Below, in pieces: positions 8,387 to 52,227 of a stretch of 64,000 nt of DNA. The position numbers and the translations under genes are program-made. Source of the stretch: Chiloscyllium plagiosum. Taxonomy: Eukaryota. The notes under the pieces are model-generated. The model did no database searches and had not been told where the DNA came from. It was given only the letters and a program-made list of their open reading frames with translations. The stretch spans positions 1,514,023-1,578,022 of the forward strand of contig NC_057753.1 in the NCBI RefSeq assembly GCF_004010195.1, given 5' to 3'. The stretch's first letter is position 1, and every line of letters starts with the position of its first letter.

Positions 8387-9297
8387 TCACGACTTAAATA
8401 ATTTAAACACTAGTGACAGGGGAAATTTGAACAATTTCTTCAGTTGCTGTCTGAATTTATTCTGGGTTCCTGCATAAATAAATGGGTTGATGCAGGAGCT
8501 CAAAAGCTGAAGCATAAACCCACCTTCCTCAAGAATAAAATTTGAATCATTGTAATTCGAACCTGAGAAATACCTGACGTTCAAAATTTGAACATTGAGG
8601 AAAGTCAGTAGAACCAACAAATAGGAGAGGAGGAAACTGCCCGAAATGGTGAAGAGTAAAACAATGGACTTCTTCCGTTTTTCCATCTCTGGATCACTCT
8701 GATTCTCTCCATTGCTCCTGGCCCGAAGTCTTTTGCGGGCTCTACTGGCCAATACAATGTGCCTGACAGTGAGGGCATTTAGCAGCAAAATCATAATAAA
8801 TGGAAGACAAGGATTTAAAATTGCTATTATCCAGTCAAATGCAACCCAACTGGGTGAAGTATAGTATATTGGTTTGGTATTGCAATACCAAGGTACATTG
8901 TTCATGATGAAGGAAGGATCATACGTAAAGTACAAGGGGATGTTTCTAATGCAGCTCAGAGTGCAGACAGTTGCTATAATCACAGCCGCAACCTTTTCAG
9001 TGCAATATTTTCTTTTCAGTTTCTGGCAACAAATGGCAATGTATCGATCCAAAGTGAAAGCGACAGTTACCCAGACAGAGGAATCTCTGACTCCATAAAG
9101 TAATGCAAGAGTGGCACTACAGACTGGGGTGATGGACAGGAATGTCATTGTGAAATAAATGCGCACAAGCCGGTTTAATATCACAGCTGTGATAATGACC
9201 AGGAGATCCGTCACTGCCATGGAAACCAGGTAATATGCAATGCATTTGGAAAGGCCACAACTCTCTCTTGACAGGATAACAATCACTGAAATGTTAG
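8387..9297 (-). CDS. GPR139/GPR142-like class A GPCR, copy 1, coding exon 2 (TM1 end to TM7 and C-tail)
   Basis: Open 911-nt exon after the acceptor ccctttttta-tag|CT; motifs YLVSMAVTDL (TM2), PVC (TM3 Cys), TLDRYIAIC, WYC (ECL2 Cys), LPF..ILLLNALT (TM5), SSCINPFIY (TM7); ends at TGA 8387-8389. Confidence 0.92.
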
Positions 9298-10834
9298 CTA
9301 TAAAAAAGGGATATAATGAGTGAATGCATGATATTGATCAATGTAGATGTAGCCAAAGGAAGGCACAAACTAACATTTTGAAATGCACAACTTCCTGGAA
9401 ACAATTACAAAACAGGAATGGGTCCATATTTTGCACTGAAACTGTTTCTATTTATCATCTGTAATTGGCAGCGAACTGTCAGTAGTGTGTAATATGGGCA
9501 ATATTATCAGTTTTGACATTTTCTCTTTACAATTCAGTCGCAGGAAATGCAGTCCATGCTGCCTTTGGAAAATTTGTACAGAGGAACAAAAGCAAAAGTA
9601 ATCCAAAGCATTGGTAGATTGGAAGAAGCAGCATTAGTATATGTTCACCAAGGAAATGGCCATAAAGAATCAGATGACATTGAATGTAAAGAAATCATAA
9701 GAGTTTCACATTGGTGCAGATAAATAGGAAGAGGTCACTCTAGGAGAAATGAATACTCATTTCAAAACAGAAGGAAACCCGAGATTGTACTTGGTGATGA
9801 TCTTAAACTAATCCAATATTGTTTAGTGACAGACCCTAAAGCAATAGAATAGATGAAGACCAGGTGTAGCTCTGTTGGCAATGTTCTCTCTTTTTATTCC
9901 AATGATTTTGGCTTCAAATCCGACTGCAAGACATCAGTACTGACTGAGTATTGCAGTGCTCAGGGTGTTGCGTTTGTGCCAACCCAATAAATGGAAGATG
10001 TGAGGAATAAGAGTCAAATAGAAAATCTAACTGAACTATTAAGAAGCTGCTGTTAGTATTCCATCAGATGCACTAAGCAGTGCCCCAAAGTAAAACTGAG
10101 CAACCTCATTACCTGTGCAGGCTGAAAAAAAACAATTTTGCAGTGTGATAAATAATTGACAGTTATAATGCTCAAAACACAATCGAAGTGCAATTAAATA
10201 GTCGTACCACTGAGATAATTCATGCAGATTAACGGCATTAGGAACACAACAATGCACCATTTCTGAGTTTTGATGCTAACAATAAACCATAGAAAGTAGG
10301 TTAGGCGGGAATTGATTCTGCTCAAAGAAAAGGATTTCATGATCAACGTAAACAAGTTATGCAATTGAAAATGACACTGTTAATGAAGAGAAAATAAGAT
10401 AGAAATTCATTGGACACATTTTGTTGGTGAAATGGAACTTTAATGCCCTTGAAAGGGCGGGAGATATTTTAACCCAACGAATGTAAAATAGCCATACCCC
10501 TATTGGACCGATTGGGCTGTTCTTTCAATGAAGAGAGAGACGACTCATAATGATTTAACCTGAAGGTCATTAGTCTAAAGGCAACAAAAAAGGCTGAGAA
10601 GGAGTCCTCCATGGTACACACAGCCAGTGCAGGTACTGAAGTGAAAACCCACGGTCCAGCCAACTGCGTTAACTGACTCTGTCAAAGTTGCGTATCCAAA
10701 TTGACAATTCCACAGATTATCACCAAAGTGCTGGACTAAATACCAAATAGACTATTAGTTTATTGGAACTGCAGTATTGATAACTGAGAGAATGTATTAA
10801 AAATCCTATTTAATAAATAAAGAATATCCTTTAC

Positions 10835-10904
10835 CTGGAACTCCAATAGTTGCTAGGATTGCATAGTAAATAACAAACACCAGCCCTTTCGGTAATCCAT
10901 GCAT
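10835..10904 (-). CDS. GPCR copy 1, coding exon 1 (MHGLPKGLVFVIYYAILATIGVP, phase-1 intron)
   Basis: ATG at 10904, 70 nt to the donor CCAG|GTAAAG; splices in frame to exon 2 giving GVP-ANISVIVIL and a 326-aa protein. Confidence 0.88.
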
Positions 10905-10955
10905 TTCTGTCTCAAGCTGCAGCAGTGGTTATCACTACAGTGATAGATAACCACA

Positions 10956-10961
10956 TTTATA
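10956..10961 (-). promoter_or_regulatory. Putative TATA box of GPCR copy 1
   Basis: TATAAA 52 bp upstream of the ATG, positionally conserved in copies 2 and 3. Confidence 0.55.
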
Positions 10962-11940
10962 CCTGATGCCAGGCTCCTGGGACACAATCAAATGCATTAG
11001 GTGTTTGCAATGATTACTCCAGTTGAAAGAATCAGATTAGAGATTCTTGTTCCGAGCTCATCTTCAATTTTGATGGATACAAATTTTATTCCTGGGCACT
11101 GATACTGCTCCAAAGCACTACAGGATGTAATCTCCCTAATGAAAAAAAAAGAAACAGGCTGTTACAAATGTGCAGGAGAACATTTTGCGTGAAATACCCT
11201 TGTCTGTGAAAAAGATATCTTTGACCTGAGGTAGTCTGTTTGATTGGAATATGCTGCCTTGTTTCCTCTCGTGATCATTATTCAGTCCATGCAATTAGTG
11301 ATTAGGGTACAAGGCGGGTTCAAGTACTTCTGAAAATCTATAAGTACACCAAAGCAACAGTCTATGCACGGATTATGGGCATGTCCGTTATATTTCACGA
11401 TGCGTTCAGAATGTCGGTTAGTTTTTGCAGTGCAGATTGGACCACGTGGGAATCGTTATTTTATATTCTGACACGTCAAGAACATCCTGATTGGATTGAA
11501 TTCAACATGAGCCGGTTCAAATCAGCAGTTATATCAGAACTGATATTTCCAGCTTTCTGCCTGTTCATTCATAGTGGGTAAAGTCTGTTCAGTGTGATTA
11601 TATTTAACATAAGTTGTTCCAGTGCATACTTTTGCAATCTGTCCGCATAGGGCCGTGTCATTTTAGCTATTCATTGAAGAGGTAGGGACTAGTCCAGTTT
11701 CATAAGGTTAACTTGAGCATAGACAGGCTCAATCAAAACGCTCCGATTGCAAAAGGACAGATCCATGTCTTCCGCAGGGTGCATTTAGACAGCGCTGAAA
11801 CATGCAGATGAGCACAATTCATCTCATTGTAGAAAGAAGCGTATCAAAAATTAATGTCTTTGTGAAATTTGGCTATTAGCACAGTGAAAGCAGCTAGTTG
11901 TGAATATTTACATTCAGTGATGAAAATTCCCATTACGTTC

Positions 11941-12680
11941 TCAACGCAGTATCCCTAGTCTCTGAACCGTTCTTGTAGTCACTGTGTATATGTGGTGAGT
12001 CCAGTTGAGTTTCTGGTCAATAGTAACCCCAAGGATGTTGACAGTAGGGGATTCAGTGATGGTAATACCGTTGAATGAAAAGGGGCGGTTGTTAGAGTGT
12101 CTATCATTGGTGCTGGTCTTTGTCTGGCATTTGTGTGGCGTGCATGTTACTTGCCACTTGTAGGGATATTGTCCAGATCTTGTTGCATTTGAACACGACT
12201 GCTTCAGTATCTGAGGATTCACAAATGGTGCTGAACACTGTGCAATCATGGGCGAACATTATGACATGATGAAACGTCATTGATGAAACAGCTGAAGATT
12301 GTTGGTTCTGGACAATACCCTGAGGGACAGCTGCAGAGATGTCCTGGAGCTGAGACAATTGATCCTCCACAAACACAGCCACCGTCCTTTGTGCCAGGTA
12401 TGACTCTAACCAGTGGAATGTTTGCCTCCGATACCCATAGATTTCAGTTTTACCATACTTGATGTCATACTTGGTTATCTGAGTCCTTGATGTCAAGGGC
12501 TGTCACTCTCACCTCACCTCCGGAATTCCACTCTTTTGTCTATGTTTGCACCAAGGCTATAATGAGATCAGGAGCTGAGTGACCCGGGCGAAACTCAAAC
12601 TAGGCGTCACTGAGCAGGTTGTTGCTGAGCAGGTGGTGTTTAATAACACTGTTGATGACTCCTTGCATCCCCTTACATAA
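11941..12680 (-). mobile_element. Non-LTR retrotransposon RT fragment (clade uncertain, RTE-X-like or CR1 group), truncated by deletion
   Basis: WLESYLAQR...VPQG...MFAHDCTVFSTI...KWQVT..PHKCQ...NILGVTIDQKLNW; orthologous to 53660-55000. Confidence 0.8.
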
Positions 12681-12810
12681 ATCCACTGAGTGCTACACAA
12701 TTTAATGTAATCATGGTTGATCTGCGTATTCTTAACGCCAATCTCCTGCCTTTTGTCCAGAACCCTTGACTCTTACGAACTAAAAATCGATCTCAGCCTT
12801 GAAGATGCTT

Positions 12811-13041
12811 GATTCGGAGATGCCGGTGTTGGACTGGGGTGTCCAAAGTTAAAAATCACACAACACCAGGTTATAGTCCAACAGGTTTAATTGGAAGCAC
12901 TAGCTTTCGGAGCGACGCTCCTTCATCAGGTGATTGTCAGGTGATCAGAAAACACTATCACCTGATGAAGGAGCGTCGCTCGGAAAGCTAGTGCTTCCAA
13001 TTAAACCTGTTGGACTATAACCTGGTGTGTGATTTTTAACT
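12811..13041. mobile_element. Penelope-type inverted terminal-repeat insertion with 12-bp TSD and two hammerhead-like cores
   Basis: ~88-bp inverted arms (12846-12933 / 12957-13043); TSD ttgaagatgctt at 12799-12810 and 13042-13053; same sequence family as the 3' end of the Penelope element at 44790-44923. Confidence 0.82.
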
Positions 13042-13504
13042 TTGAAGATGCTTAGTGGCATTATCTCTGCAGGTCTCTGTGGTAATGAACTCCACAAATT
13101 CATAACCCTCTGACAGAAGAAATTCTTACTTGTTTCTATCTTAAATGTGGAGTGTCTTACTCTGAGAGTATGCCCTCAAAGTGAAACTACCTCTCAGTAC
13201 CTACCCCGTCAAGCCCTCTATGAAACATACATGTACCAATACGGCTGCCTTTCATTCTTCTTCTTGCATCAATACAGTTATCAACATTGTGATGTTATTT
13301 TTTCATGGATGATGAGTGAAGTTTTAATATTATTTGTCTGGAACTGTGATGTAAATTAGTGAAATGATTAATCTGCAACTACAATTAAATGACAACTGAC
13401 AATGAACTTGATAATTAATTTAATTTCAGAAGATATAAAAGACCAATCACGAATGGAGATCTTTACATGAATTACTAATGCAGCCAGTCAGTTCTGTTGG
13501 CATT

Positions 13505-13830
13505 TCATAGAATCCCTACAGAGTGGGAACTGGCCACTTGTCCCAACAAGTCCACACCAACTCTTCAAGGAGTCACCTCCCAGACGCGTTGCCTTACCTG
13601 ACATGTCTCCTGACTAATGCATTTAATTTACACATCGCTGTACACTATGCACAATTTAGCGTGACCAATTCACCTAACCTGCACATCTTTCAACAGTGAG
13701 AGGAAACCGGAGTAAACCCATACACGGGGAGAATATACAACCCCCTCACACACCGTCGCCCGAAGCTGGGTTTGAACTCACATCCCTGGTGCCATGAGGC
13801 AGCAGTTCTAACCAGTGACCCACCATACCG
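13505..13830 (-). mobile_element. HE1-like SINE (ortholog at ~40435-40773)
   Basis: SINE head, core and tail motifs as at 2203-2503; same flanks in unit 2. Confidence 0.8.
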
Positions 13831-15292
13831 CTCTATATGGAAATTGTTTTGTAGAACTGAAAACACCGTGGATGTCTAAAATTTGGAATATGAGGAGGAA
13901 ATTCTGGAGGCGCTCAAATGTGCTAACAGATTCCATGGAGACAGAGATTGGTTCAAGTTTCACATCTAAGAGCAAGTAAGAATGGCGAAGAAGTTGATAT
14001 GGGGCAGACGAGGGAAGATGAACAAAAGGAGCAGTCTATAGAAGTTGTGAAATCAATGACAACAGTCAAGATACAGAAGATGAGGTGTAAATAGAAGTCT
14101 CAAATGCAAAAATGATCATAGAGGACAAGAACAGAAAACAAAGTCAGAAATCAAATCACACAATCCTTCAACTTCTACACCTGAAGGCTGAATATTGCCT
14201 CCTATTACTTCTCAGTTCAGATGAAAGGCGACAGATCTGCTGACTTTGCTTATTCCCTCCCCAGCCATGCAGCTTAGATCAGGAGATCACGTCCCCACAC
14301 TCCACTCCCTGGCTCCACAGAGACTGACGTTTGACCCTCCCACTGCTGGGGAGCGCTGGGTAAAGAGTCAGGAACCTGCTAGCTCGTTGTAAGTTTCTAC
14401 TCATCAAGTACTAGATGACAGACAAATCAGGGATGTGATGTGAGTGGAAGTTCTGGCATTTACACATGCCTGCAATGCTTGTCTATCTAAATGGTTAGGG
14501 TGAAGCTATACGGACTTTGTCCAACTCTGGTCCAGTTATATGTATATTAAATCCTTCATCCCTGCCTCTTCCTTACCACTCCATCTCCTTCCGTTGGTTG
14601 TAAGTACTAACTGGTTCCCTTCCCTGAAGGACACCAGTGAACTTGTTTAATGAATAATGACAATTCAGCGGCTTCGATGGTCGCTTTGCACCTCTCAGTG
14701 TCAGCTCCACGATTTGACAACTAGTCTCTGTTTTAGTGCATTGCCTGTCACTCTAACGTTTTTCTTCAGTAATATATCAGGTTCACAGCAAATTAGAGGA
14801 AGTGGATTTGCAGTCAGGAAACTCGATGTAACTATTAAGGAACAGCAGAATGACTGTCACACTCTCTCTTTCATGCAGAAAAGTGTTGGAATGAATTGAA
14901 GAGAGCAGTGCAAAGCCAGTATGGCCTGCAGGCTAAGAGTTTAAGGAAAATAGGAACCTCTTTCAAGACATTTAGTGTCACTGAGAACATTGGGAATCGT
15001 CAAAAGGTCCTATTTTGTACAATTCTCAAATCCTAGATCTTCATAATATTTTGACGTGAGTATATTCAATGTTGAGATGGTGAGACAGGACATATCTTCC
15101 TTTTCACCACATTATCCTTCTTGAATCACTTCTTGCCCTTATAATTCCATATGTTTGTGCAAACAAGTAGCGGTGTATCTCCGGGGACTGCCAATCACAT
15201 TACAGAAGATAAAAAGGTGAATTCAACCACATAGCCAAATCAAGATGACGTAACAATGAGCATAAGAAGGGTAGATAATGATATTGAATTCA

Positions 15293-17580
15293 CATATAGA
15301 TCACATCCTACGCTCTGCCCTCATCAATGCTCTTTGTTACTTCCTCAAAGAACTCAATCAATTTTGTGAGACATGATTTCCCACGCACAAAACCATGTTG
15401 ACTATCCCTAATCTGTCCTTGCCTTTACAAATACATGTACATCCTCTCCCTCAGGATTCCCTCCAACAACTTGCCCACCACCAACGTCAGGCTCACTGGT
15501 CTATAGTTCCCCGGTTTGTCCTCACCACCCTTCTGAAACAGTGGCACCACGTTAGGCAACCTCCAGTCTTCTGCCACCTCACCTGTGACTATCGATGATA
15601 CAAATATCTCAGCAAGAGGCCCAGCAATCACTTCCCTAGCTTCCCACAGAGTTCTCGAGTACACCTGATCAGGTCCTGGGGGCCTTTTATGCGTTTCAAG
15701 ACATCCAGCACTTCCTCCTCTGTAATCTGGACATTTTGCAAGATGTCACCATCTATTTCCCTACAGTCTATATCTTCCATATCCTTTTCCACAGTAAATA
15801 CTGATGCAAAATACTCATTTAGTATCTCCCTCATTTTCTGCGGCTCCACACAAAGGCCGACTTGCTGATCTTTGAGGGGCCCTATTCTCTCCCTAGTTAC
15901 CTTTTTGTCTTTAATGTATTTATAAAAACACTTTGGATTCTCCTTGACCCTATCTGCCAAAACTATCTCATGTCCCCCTTTTGCCCTCCTGATTTCCCTC
16001 CTACTTCCTTTATACTCTTCTAAGGATTCACTCGATCTATCCTGTCTATACCTTACATATGCTTCCTTCTTTTTCTTAACCAAACTCTCAATTTCATTAG
16101 TCATCCAGCATTCCCTATACCGGAATGTTTTTTTTACCTAGCATTCCCTATACCTACCAGCCTTTCCTTTCACCCGAACAGGAATATATTTTCTCTGGAT
16201 TCTCTGGGTATCTCATTTCTGAAGGCTTCCCATTTTCCAGCCGTCCCTTTACCTACGAATATCTGCCCCCAATCAGCTTTCGAAAGTGCTTGCCTAATAC
16301 CGTCAAAATTGACCTTTCTCCAATTTAGAACTTCAACTTTTAGATCTGGTCTATCATTTTCCATAATTATTTTAAATATAATAGAATATGGTCGCTGGCC
16401 CCAAAGTGCTCCCCCACTGATACCTTCGTCACCTGCCCTGCCTTAATTCCCAAGAGTAGGTCAGATTTTGCACCTTCTCGAATAGGTACATCCACATACT
16501 GAATGAGAAAATTGTCTTGTGCACCCTTAGCAAATTCCTCTCCACCTAAACCCTTAACCTATGGCAGTCCCAGTCTATGTTTGGAAAGTTAAAATCCCCT
16601 ACTATAACCACCCTATTATTCTTACAGATAGCTGAGATCTCCTTACAAGTTTGTTTCTCAATTTCCCTCTGAATACTAGGAGATATCCCAATAAGGTGAT
16701 CATCCCTTTCTTATTTCTCAGTTCCACCCAAATAACTTCCCTGGATGTATTTCTGGGAATATAATCCCTCAGCACCGCTGTAATGCTACCCTTATCAAAA
16801 ATGCCACTCCCCATCCTCTCTTGCCTCCCTTTCTATCCTTCCTGTCGCATTTGATTTCTGGAACATTAAGCTGCCAGTCCTGCCCATCCCTGAGCCATGT
16901 TTCTGTAATTGCTATGATATCCCAGTCCCATGTTCCTAATCATGCCGTGAGTTCATCTGTTAGGCCGCTTGCATTGAAATAAATGTAGTTTAATTTATTA
17001 GCCCTACCTTGTCCCTGCCTGCCCAGACTGTTTGACTCGCTTCTGTTCTCAACTGTACCAGTCTCAGATTGATCTCTTTCCTCACTATCTCCCTGGGTCC
17101 CACTCCCCCACCTTACTAGTTTAAAATCTCCAGAGCAGCTCTAGCAAATTTCCCTGCCAGTATATTAGTCCCCTTCCAATTTAGATGCAAGCCATCCTTC
17201 TTGTGCAGGTCACTACTACCTCAAAAGAGATTCCAATGATCCAAAAATGTGAATCCTTCCTCCATACACTAGCTCCTCAGCCATGCATTCATCTGCTCTA
17301 TCCTCCTATTCCTGCCCTCACTAGCTCGTAGCACCGGGAGTAATCCAGATATTACTACCCTTGAGGACCTCCTTTTTAAATTCCTGCCTAACTCTCTGTA
17401 ATCTCCCTTCAGAATCTCAACCTTTTCCCTTCCTATGTCGTTGGTTCCAATGTTGACAATGACGTCTTTCTGGCCCCTCTCCCCCGTGAGAGCATTCTGT
17501 ACCTTCTCTGAGATGTCCTTGATCCTGGCACCAGGGAAGCAACACACCATTCTGAGTTTTCGCTACGGGCCACAGAAACA
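15293..17580 (-). mobile_element. CR1 LINE 5'/internal part (ORF1 esterase, APE endonuclease, start of RT), inverted relative to its 3' end
   Basis: ORF1 VCCFPGARI...VIVNIGTNDIG (SGNH-esterase-like, 17269-17570); endonuclease EVIWVELRNKKG; RT start GEV.EDWR..NVVPLF.KG..DKPGNYRPVSLT..VGKLLE and HGF...LIEFFEEVTK.IDEGRA.DVIY ending at ~15293. Confidence 0.9.
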
Positions 17581-18228
17581 TCGGAGTCCAGAACTAGTGG
17601 GCATAGGTTTAGGGTGAGAGGGGAAAGATATAAAAGAGACCTACGGGGCAACTTTTTCACACAGAGGGTGGTACGTGTATGAAATGAGCTGCCAGAGGAA
17701 GTGGTGGAGACTGGTAGGAAACATGTTTCCTGCCTCCAGAGTGTCCAATCCTTTAATAATCTTATATGTCTCAATCAGATCCCCTCTAAGTCTTCTAAAC
17801 TCAAGGGTATATAAGCCCAGTCACTCCAGTCTTTCAGCGTAAGGTAATCCCGCCATTCCAGGAATTGACCTCGTGAACCTATGCTGCACTCCCTGAACAG
17901 CCAGAATGTCTTTCCTCAAATTTGGAGCCCAGAACTGCACACAGTACTCCAGGTGTGGTCTCACCAGGGCCCTGTACAGCTGCAGAAGAACCTCTTTGCT
18001 TCCATACTCAATCCCTCTTGTTATGAAGGCCAGCATACTATTAGCTTTCTTCACTACTTGCTGTACCTGCATGCTTAAAAGGCATCTGGATGGGTATATG
18101 AATAGAAAGGGTTTGCAGGGATATGGCCGGTGCTGGCAGGTGGGACTAGATTGGGTTGGGATATCTGTTCGGCATGGACGGATTGCACTGAAAAGTCTGT
18201 TTCCATGCTGTACATCTCTATGACTCTA
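17581..18228 (+). mobile_element. CR1 LINE 3' end (sense), interrupted by an antisense CR1 fragment at ~17716-18075
   Basis: ESRTSGHRFRVRG...FFTQRVVRV.NELPEEVVE, then LKRHLDGYMNRKG, 3' UTR and tail ctctatgactcta; the nested minus fragment reads KANSMLAFITRGIEY...RPHLEYCVQFWAP. Confidence 0.85.
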
Positions 18229-18266
18229 AACTGCATTTTATTATGATTGATGTGATTTTTGTATGA

Positions 18267-19167
18267 TCACAATTCAATTTTTTTAAACACTAGTTTCAGG
18301 GGAAGTTTTTGCCAATTTCTTTAACTGCTCTCTGAATTTACTTTGGGTCCCTGCATAAGTAAATGTATTGATGTGTGAACTAAAAGCTGAAGCATATAAC
18401 GTATTCATCAAGAATACAATTTGATTCGCTGTAATCTGAACCTGAGAAGAAAGTGACATTCGCAGTTTGAACATAGAGGAATGTCAGGAGAACCAAGACT
18501 ACGACAGGAGGAAACTGCTTGTGATAACGAAGAGTAAAACAATGGACTTCCTCCGTTTCTCCATTCCTGTGTCACTCTGATTCTGTCCCTATCTCCTGGT
18601 ATTGAGTCTCCTGAGGGCTCCACTTGCCATTATAATGTGTCTGACATTTAAGGCATTGAACTGAAAGTTAGAGTGAATGGAAGAAAAGGATATGAAATTG
18701 CAATTATCCAGACAAGCACAAATCAACAGGGTGAGGTATTATATATTGGTTTGAGGCTGCAATACCAAGGTACATTGTCAGTTTAAAATGAGGGGACATA
18801 CACAATGTATAGGGATGTTTCTGATACAGCTCAGTGCAGGCAGTCGCCTGAACCACTAATGCTACTTTCTTGGTGCAATATTTCATTTTCTTCTTCTGGC
18901 AACAAATGGCAATGAATCGATCAAAGGTGAAACTGATAGTTACCCAGACAAAAGAATCTCTGACTGCATAAGTTAATGCAAGACTGGCACGACAGTGCGT
19001 AGTGATGGACAGGAATGTCATTGTGGAGTAAACAGGCATAATCCAGTTTAATATCCAGTTTAATAATAATCAAGAAACCTGTCACCGCCATGGACACCAG
19101 ATGATACACGATCCATTTGAAACACTGCATTTTTCCTACCACAGCATAACAATCACTGAAGAGATAT
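18267..19167 (-). pseudogene. GPR139-like GPCR pseudogene, paralog B (exon 2 only; no exon 1 found)
   Basis: Homologous to exon 2 (SVIVMLW*, WIVYHLVSMAVT, FTFDRFIAICCQK, INTFTYAGTQSKFREQLKKL) with an in-frame TAG and several frameshifts; acceptor ctctttttcaaag retained. Confidence 0.88.
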
Positions 19168-19445
19168 CTTTGAAAAAGAGATATTTAAGAGTGATAACGT
19201 GATATCGACAAATGAAGATGCAGCCAAAGAAAGATAAAAACAGACATTTAGTTCTGCTCAGTTTTCTGGAAGCCATTACCAAGAGGGAAAATAGTCCAAA
19301 TTTTATACAGAAAATATTTTTCTTCAACTGCAGAAAACAATCTTTAATTGACATTATGTTATAGTTGCAATAGGAGATATTGTCAGTTTTGCAACTAATG
19401 TTGACATTCCTTCCTGAGGATTCGCTTGCAGGAAATGCACTCTGT

Positions 19446-19757: not shown

Positions 19758-19879
19758 ACTCTGTTCTGTTCTTGGCAATTTGTACAGAAGAAAAGCAGCA
19801 AAAATAGTGTCAAACTTTGATAATATTGAGGAAACAATAATATTATATGGACCAATGAAACGGGTATAAAGAAGCTACA

Positions 19880-39660: not shown

Positions 39661-41319
39661 ACCTATCTATACTCTCTATCTTGAGAAATATGATTATTTA
39701 TCAATGTCTTCACCGATTCTCACTTCACTGTAATTGGGATTACATCTGTGGGGAGGATGTGATAGCTCTGGGTTAGGCCACAAATTCTAAATAAATCGTC
39801 ACTGGGCCTGTGTTTGCAGCTCCAGGATGATTTCGTTTTCCCTGGGATCATTGCAGGTTTGCAGCTGCCATCATTGCTTCATAGGGTTCACAATGTATGC
39901 CCAATTGTCTCAGTTGTAAATCTATTTCTTGTTATTCTCATCATAATTCACAAAGAAAGACTACCAAACTTTTGGAAATCTTGGGATGGTGCCTTGTTCA
40001 TAAGGTCAAAGCCAGTCATGCACATCGGGAACAACCCGCAGACATCCTGAAGTAACCCTCCTCTAGTCCAAAATATAACTGTTAATGATGCCTATGTTAT
40101 GCCAATCATTTCAAACATTTCACGTCAATGTTGCTACTGTCACTTTTATTTCATTAACTCCAGTGCTTTGCCAGACCATTATGGAACAAATTATTAAATA
40201 CTTATCTACATGTTGATTACATCAATATGGTTATCAACATTCTGAGGTTAAGTGTTAATATCATTTGTCAGAAACTATAGTGTAAATTAGTGAAGTGATT
40301 AAGTTTCAACTACAATTAAATGACAACTGACAATGAACTTGATAATCAATTAAATTTCAGAAGATATGAACGACCAACCAATGGAGACCTCTACATGAAT
40401 TACAAATGCAGACCAGTCAGTTCATTTGGTATTGTATAGAATCCCTACAGTGTGGAAACAGGCCAGTTGGTCCAACAAGTACACAGCAACCCTACGAAGA
40501 ATAACTCACCCAAACTCTTTCCTTTCCCCTACATGTCTCCTGACTAATACAACCATCTAACACATCCCTGAACACTATGCGCAATTTAGCATGGCCAATT
40601 CACCGAACCTGCACATCTTCGGACAGTGAGAAGAGACCAGAGCACCCGGAGTAAACCCACGCATACATGGGGAGAATATGCAAACTCCACACACACTGTC
40701 GCCCTCGGCTGGATTTGAACCTGCATCCCCTGAGTCGTGAGGCAGCAGTTCTAACCACTGACCCACTACGCCCCCGTATATGGAAATTGTATTATAAAAC
40801 TGAAAAACACAGTGAATGTCTAAAATTTGGAATATGAGGAGGAAATTCTGGAGGCGAAAAAATGCGCTAACCAATTTCATGGAGACAGAAATTGGTTCAA
40901 GTTTCACGTCTGTGAGCAAGTAAGAGGGGACAAGAAGTGGATGTGGGGCAGAAGTGGGAAGATGAACGAAAGGAACAGTCTATAGAAGTTGTGAAGTCAA
41001 TGACAACAGTCAAGGCACTGAAGATGTACCTGTATGAGGTGCAAATAGAAGCCTCGAATGCAAAAAAGATCATAGAAGATCGAGAACAGAAAACAAAGTC
41101 AGAAATCAAATCACACATTCCTTCAACTTCTACGTCTGAAGGCTGAATATTGCCTCCCATTACTCCTCAGTTCAGATTAAAAAACATAGAACTTACTTAT
41201 TCCCTCTCCAGCTGTGCAGCACGGATGAGGAGATTATGTCCCCACAATCGACTCCCCAGCTCCACAGGGACTCACATTGGAAAATCCCACTTCTGGGCAG
41301 CGCTGGGTAAAGAGTCAGG

Positions 41320-41762
41320 GTGAGGTATTATATATTGATTTGAGGCTGCAATACCAAGGTACATTGTCGGTTTAGAAGGAAGTCTCATAAGCAAAGATGA
41401 AGGGCATGTCACTGATAAAGCTCAGTGCAGGCAGTTGCCTATAACCTCAGCTGCTACTTTCTTGGTGCAATATGTCATTTTCTGCTTCTGGGACCAAATA
41501 GCATTGGATCGATCAAAGATGAAACTGATAGTTACCCAGACAAAAGAATATCTGACTGCACCAGTTCACACAACACTGGCACTACAGACCAGAGTGATGG
41601 ACAGCAGTGTCATTGTGAAATAAACACTCATAATCCAGTTTAATATCACAGCTATGATAATAATCAAAACACCTGTCGCCGCCATGGATAGCAGATAATA
41701 CACGATCCATTTAGAAACACAACACTTTTCCCATCACAAGATAACAATCACCGAAAGTTTAT
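41320..41762 (-). pseudogene. Truncated GPR139-like paralog-B pseudogene (5' half of exon 2)
   Basis: KLSVIVIL*WEKCCVSKWIVYYLLSMAATG...FIFDRSNAIW..YCTKKVAA; acceptor AG mutated to AA; 3' half deleted at 41316-41319. Confidence 0.85.
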
Positions 41763-44147
41763 TTTTGCAAAAGAGATATTTAAGAGTGAATACATGATAT
41801 CGACAAATGAAGATACAGTCAAACTAAGATAAAAAACAAACATTTGGTCATGCTCAATTTTCTGTAACCAATTACAAAGAGGGAAAATAGTCTAAATTTT
41901 GGACTGAAAATATTTCTCTTGAACTGTAGAAAACAACATTTAATTCACGTTATGTTATAGCTGCAATAGAAAGATATTCTCAGCTTTGCAGTCAACATTG
42001 ACGTTCTTTCGCTAGGATACACTTGCAGAAAATTCACTTAGTTTTGCTCTTGGCAATTTGTACAGAAGAAAAGCAGCAAAAATAATCTCAAACCCTGATA
42101 AATTATGGAAACCAAAATATTTCATGTCTCAATGAAACGGGTATAAAGAAAGTACATCACAAAGGCATTTGGGGATCTTTTTTCAGAAAGCACCAAAAAC
42201 TAGTATACTGGTTAATAAGGAAGGAAACTGGGGAATCTCAGGGAATGGAGTCTGGAAATGGTGACGTCTTGTGAAAACTACTTAAGGTATCAATTAGGTT
42301 TCACCTAGAATAATATGAACAGTTTTGGCCACCATATGTGTGGAAACATATAATATTTCTGAGGACTGTCTGGAGAAGATTCGCTGATCCCACGTGTGGA
42401 GGGACTTTCTGAAGAGATGAGGTTAAGTTACATTGTAAACATTGGAGATTAAAAGAATGAGAAGTGACTTTTTTTGGAACATTTATAGTGTAGAGGGCTT
42501 GACAAGGTATATGCTGAGCGTTTGTTTCTCTTTGTGGCAGAATCTGGGACGGGAGGGTATAATAGGTTGCGATTTTAATACAGACACAAGGAAGAATTTC
42601 TTCTGTTAGAGTTTTGTGAATTTGTGGAGTTCATTTCCACAGAGAAGTTGTAGAGGCTATGTCAATAAGTATTTCAAGGCTGAGATTGATGTTTCTGAAT
42701 CAGTAAGAGATGCAAAGGTTCCAGGAGAAGGCAGGAAAACGAGGCTGAGGATTATCTGCTTGCCCGTGATCTCACTGAACGGTGGAGCAGGCAGTGGGTT
42801 TCTGTATGGAATATTATTTATGTTTGTCCTTCCCAGATATGATTAGAAAAAAGATCATCAAAATCTTTAATTATGATTACTGGTCCATTGACCTTAAGTC
42901 TAAAATACAGAAGAGGGGTATGAATTTGGTGCGGCATTTAAATTGGCACTTGAGAACAGGCATAGGATAAGGAGTAGGCCATTGACCCCTCGAGACTGCT
43001 TCAATATTCTATAAGATCATGCTTCATCTGTCAGTTAATTCAACATATCTGCCTTGGACCGATATTTCTTAATGTTGTTTAATAAAAATTTGTCTATCTC
43101 AGATTGAAACTTAACATTGGAATTGGCACCAAGCACCATTTGAGGAAAAGAGTTTCAAAAACTCCACTGCTGGTGATTTCTAACGTCTCTCGTGAATGGC
43201 CTGTCCCTAATTCTCAGATTATGCCCCCAGTTCTATAATCTTCAACCAGTGGAAATAGTTTACCTTTCCCTCACCTGCCTTTTCCTATTAATATCTTCAA
43301 TACCTTGATTAGATCACCCCACAAGCCCAACGCATACACCGGATCTGCTCAGATGAGGAGGAACGTGACGGACACCCGGAAGTACTCAAGGATGCCCTCA
43401 CAAGAACGGGGTACAATGCCCAACTCATCGACCGTCAGTTCCGACGTGCCACAGCAAGGAACTGTAATGACCTCCTCAGGAGACAGACACGTGCTGCAAC
43501 CGACAGGGTACCCTTCGTCGTTCAGTATTTCCCAGGAGCTGAAAAATTACGCCATGTTCTTCGAGATCTGCAACACATTATCAATGAGGATGAACACCTC
43601 ACCAAGACCTTCCCCACACCTCCACTACTTGCCTTTAAACAATCACCAAACCTCAAAGAGATCGTTGTTCGTAGCAAGCTGCCCGACTCTCAGGACAACT
43701 CCATACAACCCTGTCACGGTAGACGCTGCAAGACGTGTCAGAGTGTGGACATAGATACCACCATTACGCGTGGGGACACCCCCCCCCCACCTTGTATATG
43801 GCATGTACTCATGTGACTCAGCCAACGTTGTCTATCTTATACGTTGCAGCAAGGATGCCCGGAGGCATGGTACATTGGGGAAACCAAGCAAAGTCTACGA
43901 CAATGGATGAATGGGCACCACACAGCAAACAACAGCCAGGAGGGTTCCCTCTCAGTTGGGGAACACTTCAGTGGTCCAGGACATTCAGCCTCGGATCTTC
44001 GGGTGACCATCCTCAAAGGTGGACTTCGAGACAGGCAGCAGAGAAAAGTGGCCGAGCAGAGGCTGATAGCTACGTTCAGTACCCATAGGGAGGGCCTCAA
44101 CCGGGACCTTGGGTTCATGTAACATTACAGGTGACCACCATTGCACT

Positions 44148-44430
44148 ATACACACACACAGATACTCCTACACACACACACTCTCACACACACACACAGG
44201 CACTCCTATACACACGTACACATGGACATACATATACACAGACGTGCACACAGACACCCACACACACTCTTCAGACACACACGCTCCCACACTCACACAT
44301 GCACCCCCTCACAGACTTAAGACACTCTGCACTCTCTCTACACACACACATACACTTTCTCACACTCACAACCCCCAACCCAGACAGATGCACACACACA
44401 GGCAGACAAAGACCCACATGCACACATATA
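44148..44430. repeat. (CA)n-rich low-complexity tract within the Penelope 3' region
   Basis: Imperfect cacacaca runs. Confidence 0.9.
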
Positions 44431-44799
44431 TTTTGTGGGGTGAATTTGTACTTGTGGGGTTACATTGTACTTTGCTCAAAAACTACATTCGTTCATGCAG
44501 AACTCTGAGCTCAAAAACTGCATGAATTTATGTAAAACTCCGTCATCTCACATTTTAGAGTAGAATCAATCTAAACATCATGGCATAGACAGAGAACACA
44601 GGGGGCCAACACCTCCAACATATTGAAAATGCAACTTAACAAAAAAAGTTTTTGTGATTTACACATGAAAGAAGTTAAACTATCACTGTATTCGAACAGA
44701 TGAAAGGCTTAAAAGACAATCAAGTTTTCAATGTATAATTTAGGTTACATCACACTAAATTTTTGCTATAAATTCTGTTAGGATTGAGCCCTCTACTAT

Positions 44800-44834
44800 C
44801 ACCTGATGAAGGAGCGTCGCTCCGAAAGCTAGTG
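44800..44834 (+). ncRNA. Minimal type I hammerhead ribozyme-like motif in the Penelope terminal repeat
   Basis: CAC-CUGAUGA-A-GGAGC(GUC)GCUCC-GAAA-G-CUA-GUG: 3-bp stem I, 5-bp stem II, palindromic AGCU stem III, NUH = CUA. Confidence 0.6.
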
Positions 44835-47800
44835 TGCTTCCAATTAAACCTGTTGGACTATAACCTGGTGTTGTATGATTTTTATCTTTGTACACCCCAG
44901 TCCAACACTGGCATCTCCAAATCCATAAAGTTACACATTGTAGGGAATAAACACTTAATTTGTCTAATCTGTTCGTTTAACTTAAACCCTGAAGTGCAGG
45001 TATCGTCCTCGAAAACCTGCATTGAGCACCTCCAGGGCTAAAACATTCTCCCGAGAGTGTACTGCCTAGACCTGTTCCCAGCATTCTAAGTGGGATCTAA
45101 ACAGGATTTTGTATAATTGCAGCATAGTATTTGCATCCCGATATTGCAGCCCTTTAGATAGGAAAGCCGTCATTCCGTGAGTCTTCTTGACGATTTTCTG
45201 CACGTATTCATGGCAATTTAAAGATCTATGCACCTGAACCCCCAAGTCACTTTGGACATCAATGGCTTTTGATATTTTGCCTTCGGTAAATTATCCAGAT
45301 CCAAGCAATTGTTAGGAATAAATGCTTTATGAAATGAAAACTAATAAAAAAGTAATTACTCTGAGCACATGTTCCCTGAAAGGGTGAGGTCCTAGTTAAT
45401 CTGTCACATGACCTTCATTACATCTCAAGTGATAGACATTACGTGATGCTTTGAGATGTAATAACACATTAAATGATATCTTCGTTAAAGAAAACAGTTC
45501 AGTATTAAATTATCCAGTGAAGACAGCATTCATTACATGAGCATCCATTACAATTCCCTCCACATAGTAGCTTTTATCTCCAGTAGACCTGGCTACAGAT
45601 TCCACATTCATATGCAAGGAACTCATTACCGACATTTTGCTGGTTCCCATTTCGCTTTTGAGGGGTCTGAAAATATCTCTTCGCAGATCAGCCCCTCTCC
45701 AGCTATACAACCTTCCCAGCTTTTGCCGCCCAGCGACCTTTGCAGGTTCTCTGTAACTCCTGTCTCCAATTGCGTTCACTTTCCCAACATTGTGGTTTTC
45801 GATCCTCCTGGCTGGCTGGCCTCTGTTTCGCCTTGCAGCCCAGCGACCTTTGCAGGTTGAATCCCTATCAGCCTGCAGCCTTCATAACTTTTGCATGTCA
45901 GATACACACTGCTGCTCCAATTAGAGGTTGCTTGTTCCACATGTTTGCTTTGATAGGCTCGTCAAAGATTATGTCCATTCTACTACCTTTCTCTGATTGG
46001 TTGTCACAATGACTGAATTTTCTTGGGGTTTTAGTGATGAAATTGCGTACTGCTGCTTAGCGTTTGAGTGTTGCAGACTAGTTGTAATAATAAGATGACT
46101 TGTTAAATGCTGCTGGTTGATCTTTGATCACTTTGCTTAACATATTGACGGAACCTATGACATCCTGCACTTTTGGAATCACATCGTTTTCGTTAATCTG
46201 AAGAGTGTCTTGTTCTGAGGTGCTCCATCAGTTGAACATTAGACATAAATGGCTTTCTTACAAAACGTGTCATCCCTCATGTGGGAAAAGATTATGAAGT
46301 CTTGCAGGAGACACACGCAGATCCCTGACAGGATGCAGAAACAATGAAATGCAGCGCTGTTGTGATGTTTACCACAATGTGGTCAACTATGCATGATGTC
46401 TTCTTACAGGTGACAGCAAATTTGAAGGCAAACATTCAATAAAGTCTGAGCCTCCGAAGGCAAGGTTGCCTCGACACATTCAAAAACCTGATCGTCACTC
46501 AGTGTAGATTGTGTTGGGGGATTGTCTTCAGTGAGTTCGAGCTCTGTGTTCGTGTGCTTCCTTGTTGAGCAATGATGCTGGTAATTTTGGTGACTGTGCT
46601 GCTCAACTAGCTCCCAATCAGAAGTCCACACCAGATCTGCAAGAAGCCGCTCCCATGCCTCTGAGAAGGCCAACAGCTGTGAAGTCCAGGTAAAGTAAAA
46701 CAACGTTCCAAATTGACAACTAAGATTTATTTTACCTGCAGTCATAGTGTCATCTAGATCTACAGCACAGGAACATGGTGCGACTCATCCATGCAGACCA
46801 GACATCCAAACTTAATCTAGTCCCATTTGTCAGCATTTGGCCTGTATCCCTCTCGACCTTTCCTGTTCATTTCCCCATCCAGGTGCCTTTTAAATTGTCA
46901 TTGTACCAACCTCCACGACTTGCTCTGGCAGCTCATTCCATACATGTAGCAACTTCTCGTGAAAAGGTTGTGGTTAGGTCCCTTTTAAATCTTTTCCCTC
47001 TCAGCTTCAACCTACGTCATTAGTTTTAGACTCTCCCTTCCCGGGAAAGGGACCTTAAAGAATGGGAGTGCAAAGTTAGGGACGATATGTTTAAACTGAG
47101 ATGAGAAAGTTTTAAAGAGGACATGAGGAGCAACTTTTGTTGACAGAGAAAGTGGTTAGTGTGCTATTAAATTGAAATCCCACCAACCACCATGGCGGGA
47201 CGTGACTGAGAAACCCGAAAACATCACCTGAGTCTGTGTAGATTGCAACTCCACTTAAGAAACTTTTCGTCCTCAGCCTGATGCAACAACGTTCCCAAGA
47301 GTTTAAGGTGATTGACTGCTAACTTAGTATATTATTTACGCGTTGGTTTAAGTCGGACTGTCGTCATCATTTCAGTAAATGTATAACTCAATGTTATTGC
47401 TGTACACTTGCCGAGCTTTTGAAAGAGCTAAAAGCTTCTGATCAACTTATCACACTGGAGAGGGCGCACTTCAGTGAAAGATTGTACAAAGATTTGAACC
47501 CATATTCCAAACTTTCATGTAAAGTGGATTCATTTATCATAACGAAGAGGAACAAGAATGTCTGTATTTCCATGTTTGTCATCTACGATTGTATTCTGTA
47601 CAATCCAATGCAAGATAAACATAAACGACCAGAAACAAGAGAGTAGAAGCATCGGTTTATCATGTAGAATGTATTTATTTGCCTATTTTCAAAGAGTATA
47701 TGAGTGAGAAATAGAATCCACCGAAGCTGCATATCCTTGGATTGTGGGAAAAAACAGAGCACCAGGAAATCCACGCAGACATAAGCGAGCACATGCATAC

Positions 47801-50329
47801 TCCACTCCTGAGGTTAGAATAGAACCTGGGCCCCAAGCGCTGTAGAGCTAACTACTGTGTCCCTTACCTCAGGTTTCATTCAACGTGCGGCAAAGCCAGT
47901 GAGATCAGAGACTTTGCTGCTTGTCACATCTCGGCCTGAAATGTTTTCATTCCGACATATGTGATTGGTCTTAATCTATAGCTGGGATATGATTTAACGT
48001 TTGGCAATCGGTTTTGTGCATTTTACAACCTACCTCCAAATGAAATGTCTTTCTTCAGATTGTCCTCATGGTTTTGTGAGATGAAAATAAACAATAATTC
48101 ATTTACACTTTTAACATTTTAATTATTGTCCCCAATGTTCACCAAGGGGTCTGCGCTACATTTGGAGTGCAAACATCGATTTGGTAATCAATTTGTGGAA
48201 CAATATAAAATTCAGTCTGAAAACTGGACCCTGAGCTTCCGCTGATTTATCAGTTTAATTCTGTGCCCATTTCCGCCTCTTGTAAATTGCCCCAAGGAAA
48301 CTGAATGGGAGCTCGAGGAACAGCAGCTTGTTTTTCAATTCAACACTCTTCAAGCTTCCAGACTCAACAAGGATTTGAGCAGTTTCTGCATCACAGGTTT
48401 GCTGTGTGGACGGAAACCACTTGCCCTGAAAGCCTTGATTGTGCCTCCCATATTTAGACTTTGCCTGCTCTTATTTAATTTCCATTCCAATGGAAATAGC
48501 CATTATCTTACTCCCCCAACAGTTACCAATCAATGTCAAAATCATTGATCAAAGCCACCACTTAAGGTTTGAATTCCAGGGAATATCTCCCTCATTACAT
48601 GGTGATGCACTTTTAGCAGAAGGAATAGGGAGGCAATACGGAATTAATAATATAATTCTGAAGTGTATGCAAGGATTAAGGGCATATTCGATGTGCACAC
48701 ATCTTTGAAGATAGTTGATGTATTCGTCGTCAGTAAAGCAAATTCGATCTCGACCTTCAGTAATATTAGTATTGTCAACAAAATGGGGAAAGTAATATTG
48801 TACATTTATAAAGCTCTCAGGAGACCACGTGCTTTCTATCCACTTCTGATCATCACCTTTTGTAAAGACTGTGAGGGTGCTCGGAAGCGTGTAGAGGATA
48901 TTTATCAAAGTAGATTCAGCAAAGCAGGTTGAGACGAGATTTGGCTGAGTCACAAAATTTACAACATCTTTAAATAAGATAGAGAAATACAAAGCATTCC
49001 CGTTAACTGACTGAACTGTGATTAGGAACGGATTGACGTTTCTCAGAATAAAACAGAGGGGGGATGGGATAAGAACATTTTCACATGGTGATGCTGTGGA
49101 ACATGCTGACTCTGATGATGGTTGGAAAATGACACAGTAACTGGTTTGTAAACGAAATTGTTCAGCATTTGAGTGTTAGTTCATGCAAAGGTGGAACTGG
49201 GGAATGGATGTGACCTGATTATTGCAGTTGAAAACGACACAACACCAAGTTGTAGTCCAACAGGTGCTACCAAGTAAACCTATTGGATTATAATCTAGTG
49301 CTGTGTGATTTTTAGCTTCGTTCATCCTAATCCAACACCGGCTTCTCCACATCCTGATTATTGTAGGTAGCATGCTCGGAGTCAATGGGTCGAATGGCCT
49401 GCTCTGTTGCATAAGTAGTCTGCCTCTTTGGTGTAACCTCCCCTTCTATTCTCAACCTTTGAATTCACTTGTCACTAAATTCAAGTCTATTGGATCATTT
49501 ATTTGTGTGCAGTCCAGAACTGAATGCAGCTCTGCAAGCGTAATGTAAGCATAGTTTGGTTATCTTGGTGCATTTCTAGTCTCACTGACAGCTGAAATTT
49601 CCTCCCACTGAAAGAGCAAATGAACCTTAATCTTTCACATTTAGATGGCTATGTTACTCAGGGCCTCATGAATCGAAAGCCTCCTGATGCAGTGTTTGAC
49701 GTGAGTTTCCTGTGTGTTCATGCTCTGCTGTCACTGTCCCACATGTTTACGATATCTATCAACGTCAGCCCATTACAGCAATTCAGACGAGACAAATATA
49801 TGTATTGGTTTGCTTTTGCTGACTATAAGTCGTCCCAGTCTGACAATTTCAAAAAGGATGTCCTCATATTCTCTCCTTCTTGCAGGAAAATATTGGAATT
49901 AATTTAAGGGAGCATCACAGAGCCAGCATGGGCTGAAACCCAAGAGTTGTAGTGAGGGAGAGTAGAATCCCCTTTCATGAGATTTAGTTTCACTGAGACA
50001 ATTGGAAGCATGATGACTTTCTGTTTTTTACAACTGTCATGTCTCAAATAATCATAAAATTTTGGACACGCGTTTATGTACAATATTGAGGTGGCGAGAT
50101 CAGACATATTTTGGTTTTCACCATTTTTTTTTCTTGATTCACTTTTTGCCCATTTAATTCCACGTGTTTGTACGAACAAGTACTGGTTCATCTCCAGAAA
50201 CTGCTGATCACGATACATAAGATCAAACAGGAGAATTGAAGAGCATGGCCTAATCAATATGATGTATAAGTGAACATGAAAAGCAATGTATAATCTATAT
50301 TGCTGAACTCACATTGCAGTTTACTGTGA

Positions 50330-51240
50330 TCACGACTTAAAACATTTAAACACTAGTGACTGGGGAAATTTGAACAATTTCTTCAGTTGCTGTCTGAATG
50401 AATTCTGGGTCCCTGCATAAATAAATGGATTGATGCAGGAACTCAAAAGCTGAAGCATAAAACCACCTTCCTCAAGAATAAAATTTGATTCGTTGTAATT
50501 CGAACCTGAGAAATACCCGACGTTCAAAATTTGAACATTGAGGAAAGTCAGTAGAACCAACAAATAGGAGAGGAGGAAACTGCCCGAAATGGTGAAGAGT
50601 AAAACAATGGACTTCTTCCGTTTTTCCATCTCTGGATCACTCTGATTCTCTCCATTGCTCCTGGCCCGAAGTCTCCTGCGGGCTCTACTGGCCAATACAA
50701 TGTGCCTGACAGTGAGGGCATTTAGCAGCAAAATCATAATAAATGGAAGACAAGGATTTAAAATTGCTATTATCCAGTCAAATGCAATCCAACTGGGTGA
50801 GGTATAGTATATCGGTTTGGTATTGCAATACCAAGGTACATTGTTCATGATGAAGGAAGGGTCATAAGCAAAGTACAAGGGGATGTTTCTGATACAGCTC
50901 AATGTGCAGGCGGTTATTATAATCACAGCTGCAACGTTTTCATTGCAATATTTTCTTTTCAGTTTCTGGCAACAAATGGCAATGTATCGATCCAAAGTGA
51001 AAGCGACAGTTACCCAGACAGAGGAATCTCTGACTCCATAAAGTAATGCAAGAGTGGCACTACAGACTGGGGTGATGGACAGGAATGTCATTGTGAAATA
51101 AATGCGCACAAGCCGGTTTAATATCACAGCTGTGATAATGACCAGGAGATCCGTCACCGCCATGGAAACCAGGTAATAAGCAATGCATTTGGAAAGACCG
51201 CACCTCTGTCTTGCAAGGATAACAATCACTGAAAGGTTTG
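50330..51240 (-). CDS. GPR139/GPR142-like class A GPCR, copy 3, coding exon 2
   Basis: Open 911-nt exon after the acceptor tttctcatag|CA; DRY, NPFIY and both disulfide cysteines are intact. Confidence 0.92.
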
Positions 51241-52157
51241 CTATGAGAAAGGGATACATGAGATCATCCAAGATTGATGTAGATGAGGAATACACAAACT
51301 AACATTTGGAAATGCACATTTTTTTCGAAACAATTACAAAACAGAAAGAAGTCCACATTTTGCACTGAAAATGTTTCGATTCAACTGCAGAAAAACATCT
51401 TTAACTGGCAGCGAGCAGTCAATTTGTCAGTGTGGCAATACGGACATATTATCAGTTTTGACATTCTTTCCGATTCAATTGCAGTAAACGCAGTCTATTC
51501 TACTTTTGGGAAATTTGCACAGAAAAACGAAAGCAAACATAGCATTAGCAACACAACAGTACAAAATTTCTGAGTTCTGGTGATAATAATAAACCATAAA
51601 AATAGGTGGGATGTGGAGTTGAGAGAGAATTGATGCTGCTCCATGAAAATCATTGCACTAGCAATGTAAACAAGCCATGCATTTGAAAAGGAGAAATGAC
51701 ACTGTCAAAGTGGAGAAAATAAGATAAAAATTAATTGGAAACATTTTGTTGGTGAAATGTAATATTAATGCCATTGAAAGGAAGGGAGATATTCTTACCC
51801 AATGCAATACACTTACCTGACCATAGGGCTGTTCTTTCAATAGAGAAAGAGAGACGACTTATAATGATTTAACCCGAAGGTCATTACGCTTTAGGCAACA
51901 AGAAATGTTGAGAAGGAGAGTCCTTCTTGGTAAACGCAGCTAGTGCAGGTACTGAAGTAAAAACACGCGGTCCAGCCAACTGAGCTAACTGACTCTTTCA
52001 AAATTGCGTACCCCAAATAGACAATTCCAAAGAATTTCACCAAAGTTTATCGGAACTGCAGTATTGATAACTGAGACAAGGGTTAAACTGAGATTAACAA
52101 ATTAAAGAAGATATTAAAAAATACATTCCTATTTAATAACTACTGAATATCCTTTAC

Positions 52158-52227
52158 CTGGAACCCCAATAGCTGCTAGGATTGAATAGTAAATAGAAAA
52201 CACGAGCCCTTTCGGTAATCCATGCAT
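52158..52227 (-). CDS. GPCR copy 3, coding exon 1 (MHGLPKGLVFSIYYSILAAIGVP)
   Basis: ATG at 52227, donor CCAG|GTAAAG; spliced product 326 aa. Confidence 0.88.

Follow-up and report, generated by a model that had tools for sequence, protein, structure and literature searches.

A tandem cluster of GPR139-group receptor genes in Chiloscyllium plagiosum opens onto a large elasmobranch family with features of a sensory repertoire

A 64-kb stretch of the Chiloscyllium plagiosum genome (hereafter the window; 64,000 nucleotides of NC_057753.1 in assembly GCF_004010195.1, forward-strand positions 1,514,023 to 1,578,022) carries five copies of a class A G-protein-coupled receptor (GPCR) gene, all on the minus strand between window positions 8387 and 52227. 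Homology search with tblastn and splicing of the hits confirm the initial annotation's count of two intact copies (A1 and A3), one frameshifted copy (A2) and two pseudogenes (B1 and B2). The cluster is real and locally ordinary, and it opens onto a large elasmobranch family with the features of a sensory repertoire. From these features we lean towards a ligand-diverse chemosensory repertoire, with most of that role olfactory. A narrower proposal, that in sharks and rays these genes form a fifth olfactory receptor family which arose from the GPR139/FMRFamide-receptor lineage, has a homeodomain/Ebf promoter logic like that of odorant-receptor (OR) genes and outnumbers the V2R repertoire in some species, is advanced tentatively, as something we doubt slightly more than we believe.

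A search with exon 2 of A1 returned 1823 proteins at an E value of 0.001 among 5705 candidates. In the best 120 of the 1823, all 119 named proteins come from a shark, ray or skate, the closest listed homologs being those of whale shark and zebra shark (82-84% identity). Of the same 120, 79 are horn-shark paralogs, a minimum for that species, located on five contigs (54, 11, 10, 2 and 2, counted by hand); they form 79 groups at 97% core identity and 70 groups at 90%. Some of these 79 may be flawed gene models; 50 begin with MH and are full length. Searching a set of 50%-identity representatives with a profile gave 134 matches at E 1e-30, many of them fragments. When 30 of the 150 profile matches listed were looked up, they included 19 proteins from sharks, rays or skates, one from a salamander, one from a coelacanth, two from teleosts, one from a frog and three from amphioxus, one of these three assigned by similarity only. 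No chimaera protein stood among the named rows of the profile search, which does not show absence. Deep subfamilies in the tree contain shark and ray members together. RNA run X2 holds 442 contigs that match window positions 7400-11400, 365 of them less than 95% alike, which fits many paralogs and is not a measure of copy number; a metagenome scan for the end of exon 1 yielded 14 loci and no family exon. This large shark-and-ray family, with its tandem copies and pseudogenes, bears out the lineage-expanded, tandem, birth-and-death GPCR family that had been proposed for the cluster, and a large clustered family with gene birth and death is what would be expected of a chemosensory repertoire.

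Judged by sequence, the family members are class A (rhodopsin-like) receptors. Pfam 7tm_1 is matched at 78 and 75.5 bits against a cut-off of 30.5, and the D2.50, DRY and NPxxY motifs are present in A1 and A3. A Pfam scan of 40 members at E 0.01 found 7tm_1 in 40 of 40, Srx in four, DUF7535 in one and nothing else. The structure model of a whale-shark relative, P0003 (predicted local distance difference test score, pLDDT, 87), has seven helices, a cysteine pair joining transmembrane helix (TM) 3 to extracellular loop (ECL) 2, and a hairpin in ECL2; all fold matches listed for it are class A GPCRs. Its first helix starts at residue 8, in agreement with the very short N-terminus noted earlier. 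The reported lack of an N-terminal glycosylation sequon also holds, for A1 and A3 and for the first 12 residues of all 83 MH-starting relatives, while ECL3 carries a sequon in 91 of 120 relatives. An intact member is a compact receptor with almost no N-terminus and a TM3-ECL2 cysteine pair.

Variation within the helices was compared between the 79 horn-shark paralogs (mean identity 76%) and a control set of 119 members of a conserved GPR139-like clade, mostly one entry per species (mean identity 61%; ten were confirmed as one clade). At a pocket set of 31 class A positions, entropy among the paralogs is 1.25, compared with 0.92 at other outer TM positions and 0.48 in the inner half; the control gives 0.71, 1.18 and 0.93, respectively. 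Relative rates of change on the trees follow the same order, 1.59, 1.25 and 0.68 for the paralogs and 0.67, 1.22 and 0.98 for the control. The log2 ratio of paralogs to control is 1.55 for the pocket versus 0.20 (p=3e-4; p=1e-4 with the 50 full-length paralogs alone), and it drops to 0.45, 0.42, -0.17 and -0.43 once the pocket set is displaced by one or two residues. The most variable TM sites include 3.29, 3.32, 3.36, 4.60, 5.42, 5.43 and 6.51, and a 16-position pocket core, chosen after the first look, gives p=0.004 within horn shark. The pocket is variable among paralogs and conserved among orthologs of a single-gene control, and a diversified pocket is found at the level of the family only, where it changes fastest in the 79 paralogs, the reverse of the control. 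Many ligands combined with one signalling route would produce such a pattern.

Upstream of exon 1, the A copies carry a promoter block in which a homeodomain-like hexamer and an Ebf/O-E-like site lie 2 bases apart. On the minus strand it occupies 10956..10990 in A1 (a variant hexamer with a TGAT core at -86 from the ATG, the Ebf/O-E-like site at -78 and TATA at -57), 28863..28897 in A2 (a TAAT-core hexamer at -85, followed at -77 and -56) and 52279..52313 in A3 (a TAAT-core hexamer at -86, followed at -78 and -57). Across the 64 kb the strict pair is found only at A2 and A3, with 0.0003 expected per 150 bp; the loose pattern that includes A1 is expected 0.02 times per 150 bp. The horn-shark gene model P0052 (65% identical to A1) reads through the block at the same distance from the ATG with 10 of 14 codons identical, compared with 3 of 16 in the untranslated region and 0-1 of 14 upstream, and its block score of 88 exceeds the maximum of 66 in 1060 shuffles. 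In mouse, O/E-like and homeodomain sites are present in most odorant-receptor promoters (PMC3247230; PMC5608512). We regard the block as a lead for a possible olfactory expression, not as proof of it. Further homeodomain-like hexamers are located 35-45 bases upstream of the block in A2 (28927-28941) and A3 (52352-52357).

In the mechanism we propose, each subfamily or member would bind a different waterborne external compound in a pocket lined by TM3, TM5, TM6 and TM7, and the conserved cytoplasmic face would give all members one G-protein pathway. The promoter block would be bound by Lhx2-type and Ebf-type factors and would drive expression in olfactory neurons. The ligands would be small polar compounds or peptides rather than specifically Trp or Phe. 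Nearly all catshark olfactory neurons are reported to express Go and TRPC2 (PMC10116579), which would suit a receptor of this family, and a Go/Gq-phospholipase C-TRPC2 route would fit the microvillous neurons of sharks.

The initial annotation described the copies as GPR139/GPR142-like, and human GPR139 is indeed the nearest solved relative, as the profiles show. Against A1 alone, human GPR139 scores 27.9 bits, below the CCK and angiotensin receptors. A profile of 40 family members places it first among solved receptors (53.2 bits versus 49.8 for TRHR), and a 135-member profile widened to bony-vertebrate and amphioxus relatives places it clearly first (146.8 versus 106.8); by fold it ranks 7th for the P0003 model. 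However, the view of the copies as GPR139 or GPR142 paralogs likely to sense Trp or Phe is not supported. Activation of GPR139 by Trp and Phe needs F109, H187, W241 and N271, and R244 lies in the modelled pocket (PMC5430874). At these positions (F3.33, H5.43, W6.48, R6.51 and N7.38, with F109, H187, W241, R244 and N271 in that order) A1 has Y, I, Y, V and F, so that none of the five is kept. C3.25 and the ECL2 cysteine are kept in the family, whereas GPR139 has no cysteine at 3.25 in the profile alignment; P6.50 is absent in A1 and in 68 of the 79 horn-shark paralogs. With the 40-member profile, salamander (203 bits), coelacanth (183) and amphioxus (126) proteins all score above GPR139 (53). 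Since the pocket residues are not kept, C3.25 is present and these other proteins score higher, the family is best placed as a lineage of the wider GPR139 group and not as GPR139 or GPR142 multiplied.

A phylogeny was built by maximum likelihood on 59 rows, true GPR139 and GPR142 not among them. It recovers one elasmobranch clade (support 95/87) of 39 rows, including 36 named elasmobranch proteins, A1 and A3, and sets it apart from the conserved GPR139-like clade. The sister group is formed by three salamander proteins (100/99), whose long branch makes the placement less sure. That conserved clade (100/98) unites coelacanth, sturgeon, teleost, amphibian and reptile proteins with three shark proteins. 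True GPR139 and GPR142 were absent among the matches listed from three homolog searches, one of which gave 11 matches, all amphioxus or the query, and another 120 of 190. We considered whether the expanded family could represent the coelacanth/teleost GPR139-like gene in sharks and ruled this out, as that gene has shark orthologs of its own. This conserved gene of sharks, bony fishes, amphibians and reptiles (P0228, with P0312, P0350, P0367 and P0395) keeps R6.51 and D7.36; two entries of its clade are named as TMEM183A isoforms, and the gene may lie in or beside TMEM183A. No bird or mammal appears among the 120 matches listed for it. The three salamander proteins (P0219, P0273 and P0276) are the closest non-shark relatives of the expanded family among the named matches, possibly relics of an ortholog that most bony vertebrates have lost. 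Several GPR139-like proteins are present in amphioxus (P0254, P0264 and P0296-P0303), one of which reaches 100.8 bits against human GPR139 and 126 with the shark profile.

A number of results weigh against the chemosensory reading, and the window itself supplies some of them. The A copies are under purifying selection with gene conversion. Over codons 1-292, dN/dS (the ratio of non-synonymous to synonymous divergence) is 0.23 for A1-A3, 0.17 for A1-A2 and 0.20 for A2-A3, and values above 1 were not seen among the window copies. The three differ at 35 positions, of which 14 lie towards the cytoplasm and a single one (3.28, Thr/Ser) belongs to the 31-position pocket set. The earlier list of paralog differences, confined to TM1, ECL1, the top of TM3, ECL2 and ECL3, was thus selective, and the differences do not serve as evidence of ligand diversification; ligand tuning read from them is ruled out by purifying selection and the single pocket change. 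The three A copies probably share nearly one specificity. A1 and A3 have identical runs of 214, 156 and 111 nt amid flanks that differ by 18-23%, the longest run having a permutation p of 0.0002 (p=0.20 and 0.33 for the other pairs). Such long runs within diverged flanks argue for gene conversion, which has likely homogenised A1 and A3. Identical tracts of the pair span positions 154-367 and 524-792 of the A1 coding sequence, the two copies being 42 kb apart with A2 skipped.

Other points on the same side concern the pocket, the promoter and expression. The pocket set is a generic class A one, not derived from a structure. Among the horn-shark paralogs by themselves it is only marginally distinct from other outer positions (p=0.056 for rates, p=0.018 for entropy), and radical changes are not in excess at the pocket of these paralogs (p=0.23). 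The tests treat columns as independent, which neither columns nor sequences are, and the pattern by itself cannot tell positive selection from relaxed constraint. The promoter motif was picked out post hoc, its three occurrences in the window represent one ancestral event, and the TAAT core is broken in the intact A1. Only one of 53 N-terminal extensions of relatives matched the block, and the match is visible only as translation. Ebf and LIM-homeodomain factors also operate in other neurons and in B cells. The two sites are separated by 2 nt, compared with 1 in the mouse composite probe (PMC5608512), and this spacing rules out the rigid mouse composite motif as the identity of the pair. The catshark genome paper has no GPCR among the top 50 genes of a library from brain plus olfactory epithelium, and it reports that OR-like genes are also active in tissues other than the nose (PMC11979771). 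Reads of two raw RNA runs were compared with window positions 7400-11400: X7 gave no reads and X6 gave 13, all partial, 11 of them on a 43-base match amid unrelated sequence that is also found in X1; with 2-6% of both runs read and the tissue not given, this is not an expression test.

The same features could describe a ligand-diverse sentinel repertoire outside the nose, in immune, skin, gill or gut cells that sense microbial or tissue compounds, much like the MRGPR and FPR families. Such a repertoire would account equally well for the size, clustering, pseudogenes and pocket turnover, and EBF1 is a B-cell factor. In catshark, or1 and or4 expression is specific to the spleen, and that of some v2r genes is enriched in rectal gland or testis (PMC11979771). 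We nevertheless think a sentinel role unlikely, as the adjacent homeodomain-like and Ebf-like pair near a TATA element is the arrangement described for odorant-receptor promoters. It is also conceivable that no ligand diversity is involved and that the family reflects genomic drift: a region rich in repeats would be prone to duplication, dosage or chance would preserve the copies, and the pocket would vary through relaxed constraint. The copying of whole 18-23 kb units with a dead gene inside, the homogenisation of A1 and A3, the frameshift in one of three A copies and the failure to see any dN/dS above 1 would all agree with drift. It sits poorly with a dN/dS of 0.17-0.27 among the window copies, with an inner TM half that evolves slower than average in the paralogs (0.68) while the pocket evolves fastest, in helical register, and with deep subfamilies that span shark and ray members; drift is on balance a rather improbable account.

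A further alternative, in line with the ligand idea of the initial annotation, keeps the ligand class and supposes that sharks multiplied receptors of the GPR139/GPR142 type, which sense aromatic amino acids or an endogenous peptide. Among solved receptors GPR139 matches the family profile best (53.2 bits) and that of the wider group clearly best (146.8 versus 106.8), N5.58 and a TM3 SxWxxV stretch are common to the family and GPR139, Y3.33 and Y6.48 remain aromatic, and His occupies the H187 position in 47 of the 79 horn-shark paralogs. Yet the family does not retain R6.51, N7.38 or E3.32, and position 6.51 ranks with its most variable ones, whereas the control keeps R6.51 in 118 of 119; the alignment also places a C3.25/ECL2 cysteine pair in the family that GPR139 lacks, and the margin over TRHR is just 3.4 bits with the family profile. 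Conservation of an aromatic amino acid or endogenous peptide as ligand would be a long shot, and a ligand-diverse chemosensory repertoire remains the reading we prefer.

The cluster consists of three recent copies of one member and of a dead neighbour that is present twice. A 70-nt coding part of exon 1, a phase-1 GT..AG intron after the IGVP codons and a 911-nt exon 2 make up both A1 and A3, which encode 326 amino acids; the splicing confirms the single phase-1 intron described earlier, and human GPR139 presumably has its one coding intron at a similar place. All features are on the minus strand. In A1, exon 2 runs from the end of TM1 to the stop and is intact on splicing and translation (8387..9297), the sole coding intron is 9298..10834 and exon 1 is 10835..10904. 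A3 comprises intact exon 2 at 50330..51240, the intron at 51241..52157 and exon 1 at 52158..52227. A2 shares this two-exon layout (exon 2 ~26854..27761, intron 27762..28742, exon 1 28743..28812); in the assembled sequence it has lost 1 bp in the TM7 NP codons near 26952 and 2 bp near 26884, and its frameshifted exon 2 reaches a stop at codon 309. B1 (~18264..19167) is a decayed exon 2 with 77% identity to A1, 11 internal indels and four in-register stops, and B2 (~41318..41762) is a truncated 5' half of exon 2 with 76% identity and three stops. A protein search of the window found no exon 1 for B1 or B2. A stop at codon 154 and a 2-bp deletion are common to the two, which points to a single older gene death copied along with the duplicated unit and rules out independent deaths.

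Self-comparison identifies a tandem segmental duplication of A and B copies with their flanks across 4706..57228. The duplicated units are 18-23 kb long, offset by ~18.5 kb between A1 and A2 and ~23.4 kb between A2 and A3, and their flanks are 14-25% diverged. A sixth copy was not found in the window with 272 proteins searched against it, no other protein-coding gene was seen there, and Rfam gave no match. B2 is broken at 41318, where it joins sequence that matches 13316-14372; from this junction, a deletion therefore took its 3' half and flank. Between the end of B1 and its former 3' flank (14858-15252) lie ~3 kb with reverse-transcriptase-like fragments (15252-18264), likely an insertion of a long interspersed nuclear element (LINE). 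A 44-bp tandem repeat (seven copies, 96% matches) occupies 1-311 and extends past the window start. A ~300-bp dispersed repeat resembling a short interspersed nuclear element (SINE) occurs in both orientations at 2201-2500, 30616-30921, 31986-32291, 36727-37033, 40437-40775 and 61402-61706.

The family is apparently undescribed, its proteins being already public under automatic names: no description was found in the literature searched, which covered few subscription papers. The main text of the catshark genome paper contains no 'gpr' term (PMC11979771), and the word 'shark' does not occur in the available text of a GPR139 review (PMC12208981). A whale shark paper reports a relative paucity of GPCRs in cartilaginous fishes and includes a GPR142 orthogroup of 70 proteins from 35 taxa (PMC8455134). 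In the published picture, cartilaginous fishes have very few olfactory receptors; a family of at least 79 distinct members in one shark, with pocket change of a sensory-repertoire kind and a promoter resembling those of odorant receptors, would reopen that question. If it were a fifth olfactory family, sharks could no longer be regarded as animals that smell with very few receptors, and vertebrates would have their own parallel to the srw expansion of nematodes. Should it turn out not to be olfactory, it is still a large repertoire of orphan receptors that public annotations list under a misleading GPR139 label.

Set beside known systems, the family resembles GPR139 and GPR142 as class A seven-helix receptors with N5.58 and the TM3 tryptophan motif, and GPR139 is its nearest solved receptor by profile; most members carry the NCBI name 'probable GPR139', and atlas matches add automatic names only. 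It differs in being multi-copy, in the pocket residues Y, I, Y, V and F of A1, in the presence of C3.25 and in mostly lacking P6.50. Rinne et al. (2019, PMC6504862) placed the orphans GPR210A/B next to GPR139/142 as three gene sets of coelacanth, gar and fishes, in a passage that names no shark and no expansion. GPR139-like lineages of coelacanth, teleosts, amphibians and reptiles score 118-203 bits with the shark-family profile, and the coelacanth/teleost clade has its own shark orthologs, apart from the expanded family.

The nearest analogy is nematode srw, a large clustered birth-and-death family related to FMRFamide/myosuppressin receptors and proposed to sense environmental peptides, a function that the source itself treats as speculative (PMC2576165); GPR139 has likewise been tied to the FMRFamide/myosuppressin-receptor group (PMC12208981). 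Both families are large and clustered with high duplication and loss, but none of 40 shark members matches Pfam 7TM_GPCR_Srw, which does match a few control-clade proteins, and the expansion is independent. With the OR, TAAR, V1R/ORA and V2R/OlfC families it shares clustering, pseudogenes, a very short N-terminus and a variable pocket, and the promoter block of the A copies holds candidate O/E-like and homeodomain-like sites of the kind known there. It differs from OR, TAAR, V1R, V2R and T2R receptors in that none of the 40 members matches an olfactory, vomeronasal or taste Pfam model and all 40 match 7tm_1. Catshark has 34 v2r genes and 4-9 in each of the other olfactory families (PMC10116579), and the 79 members in horn shark, a different species, exceed that V2R count.

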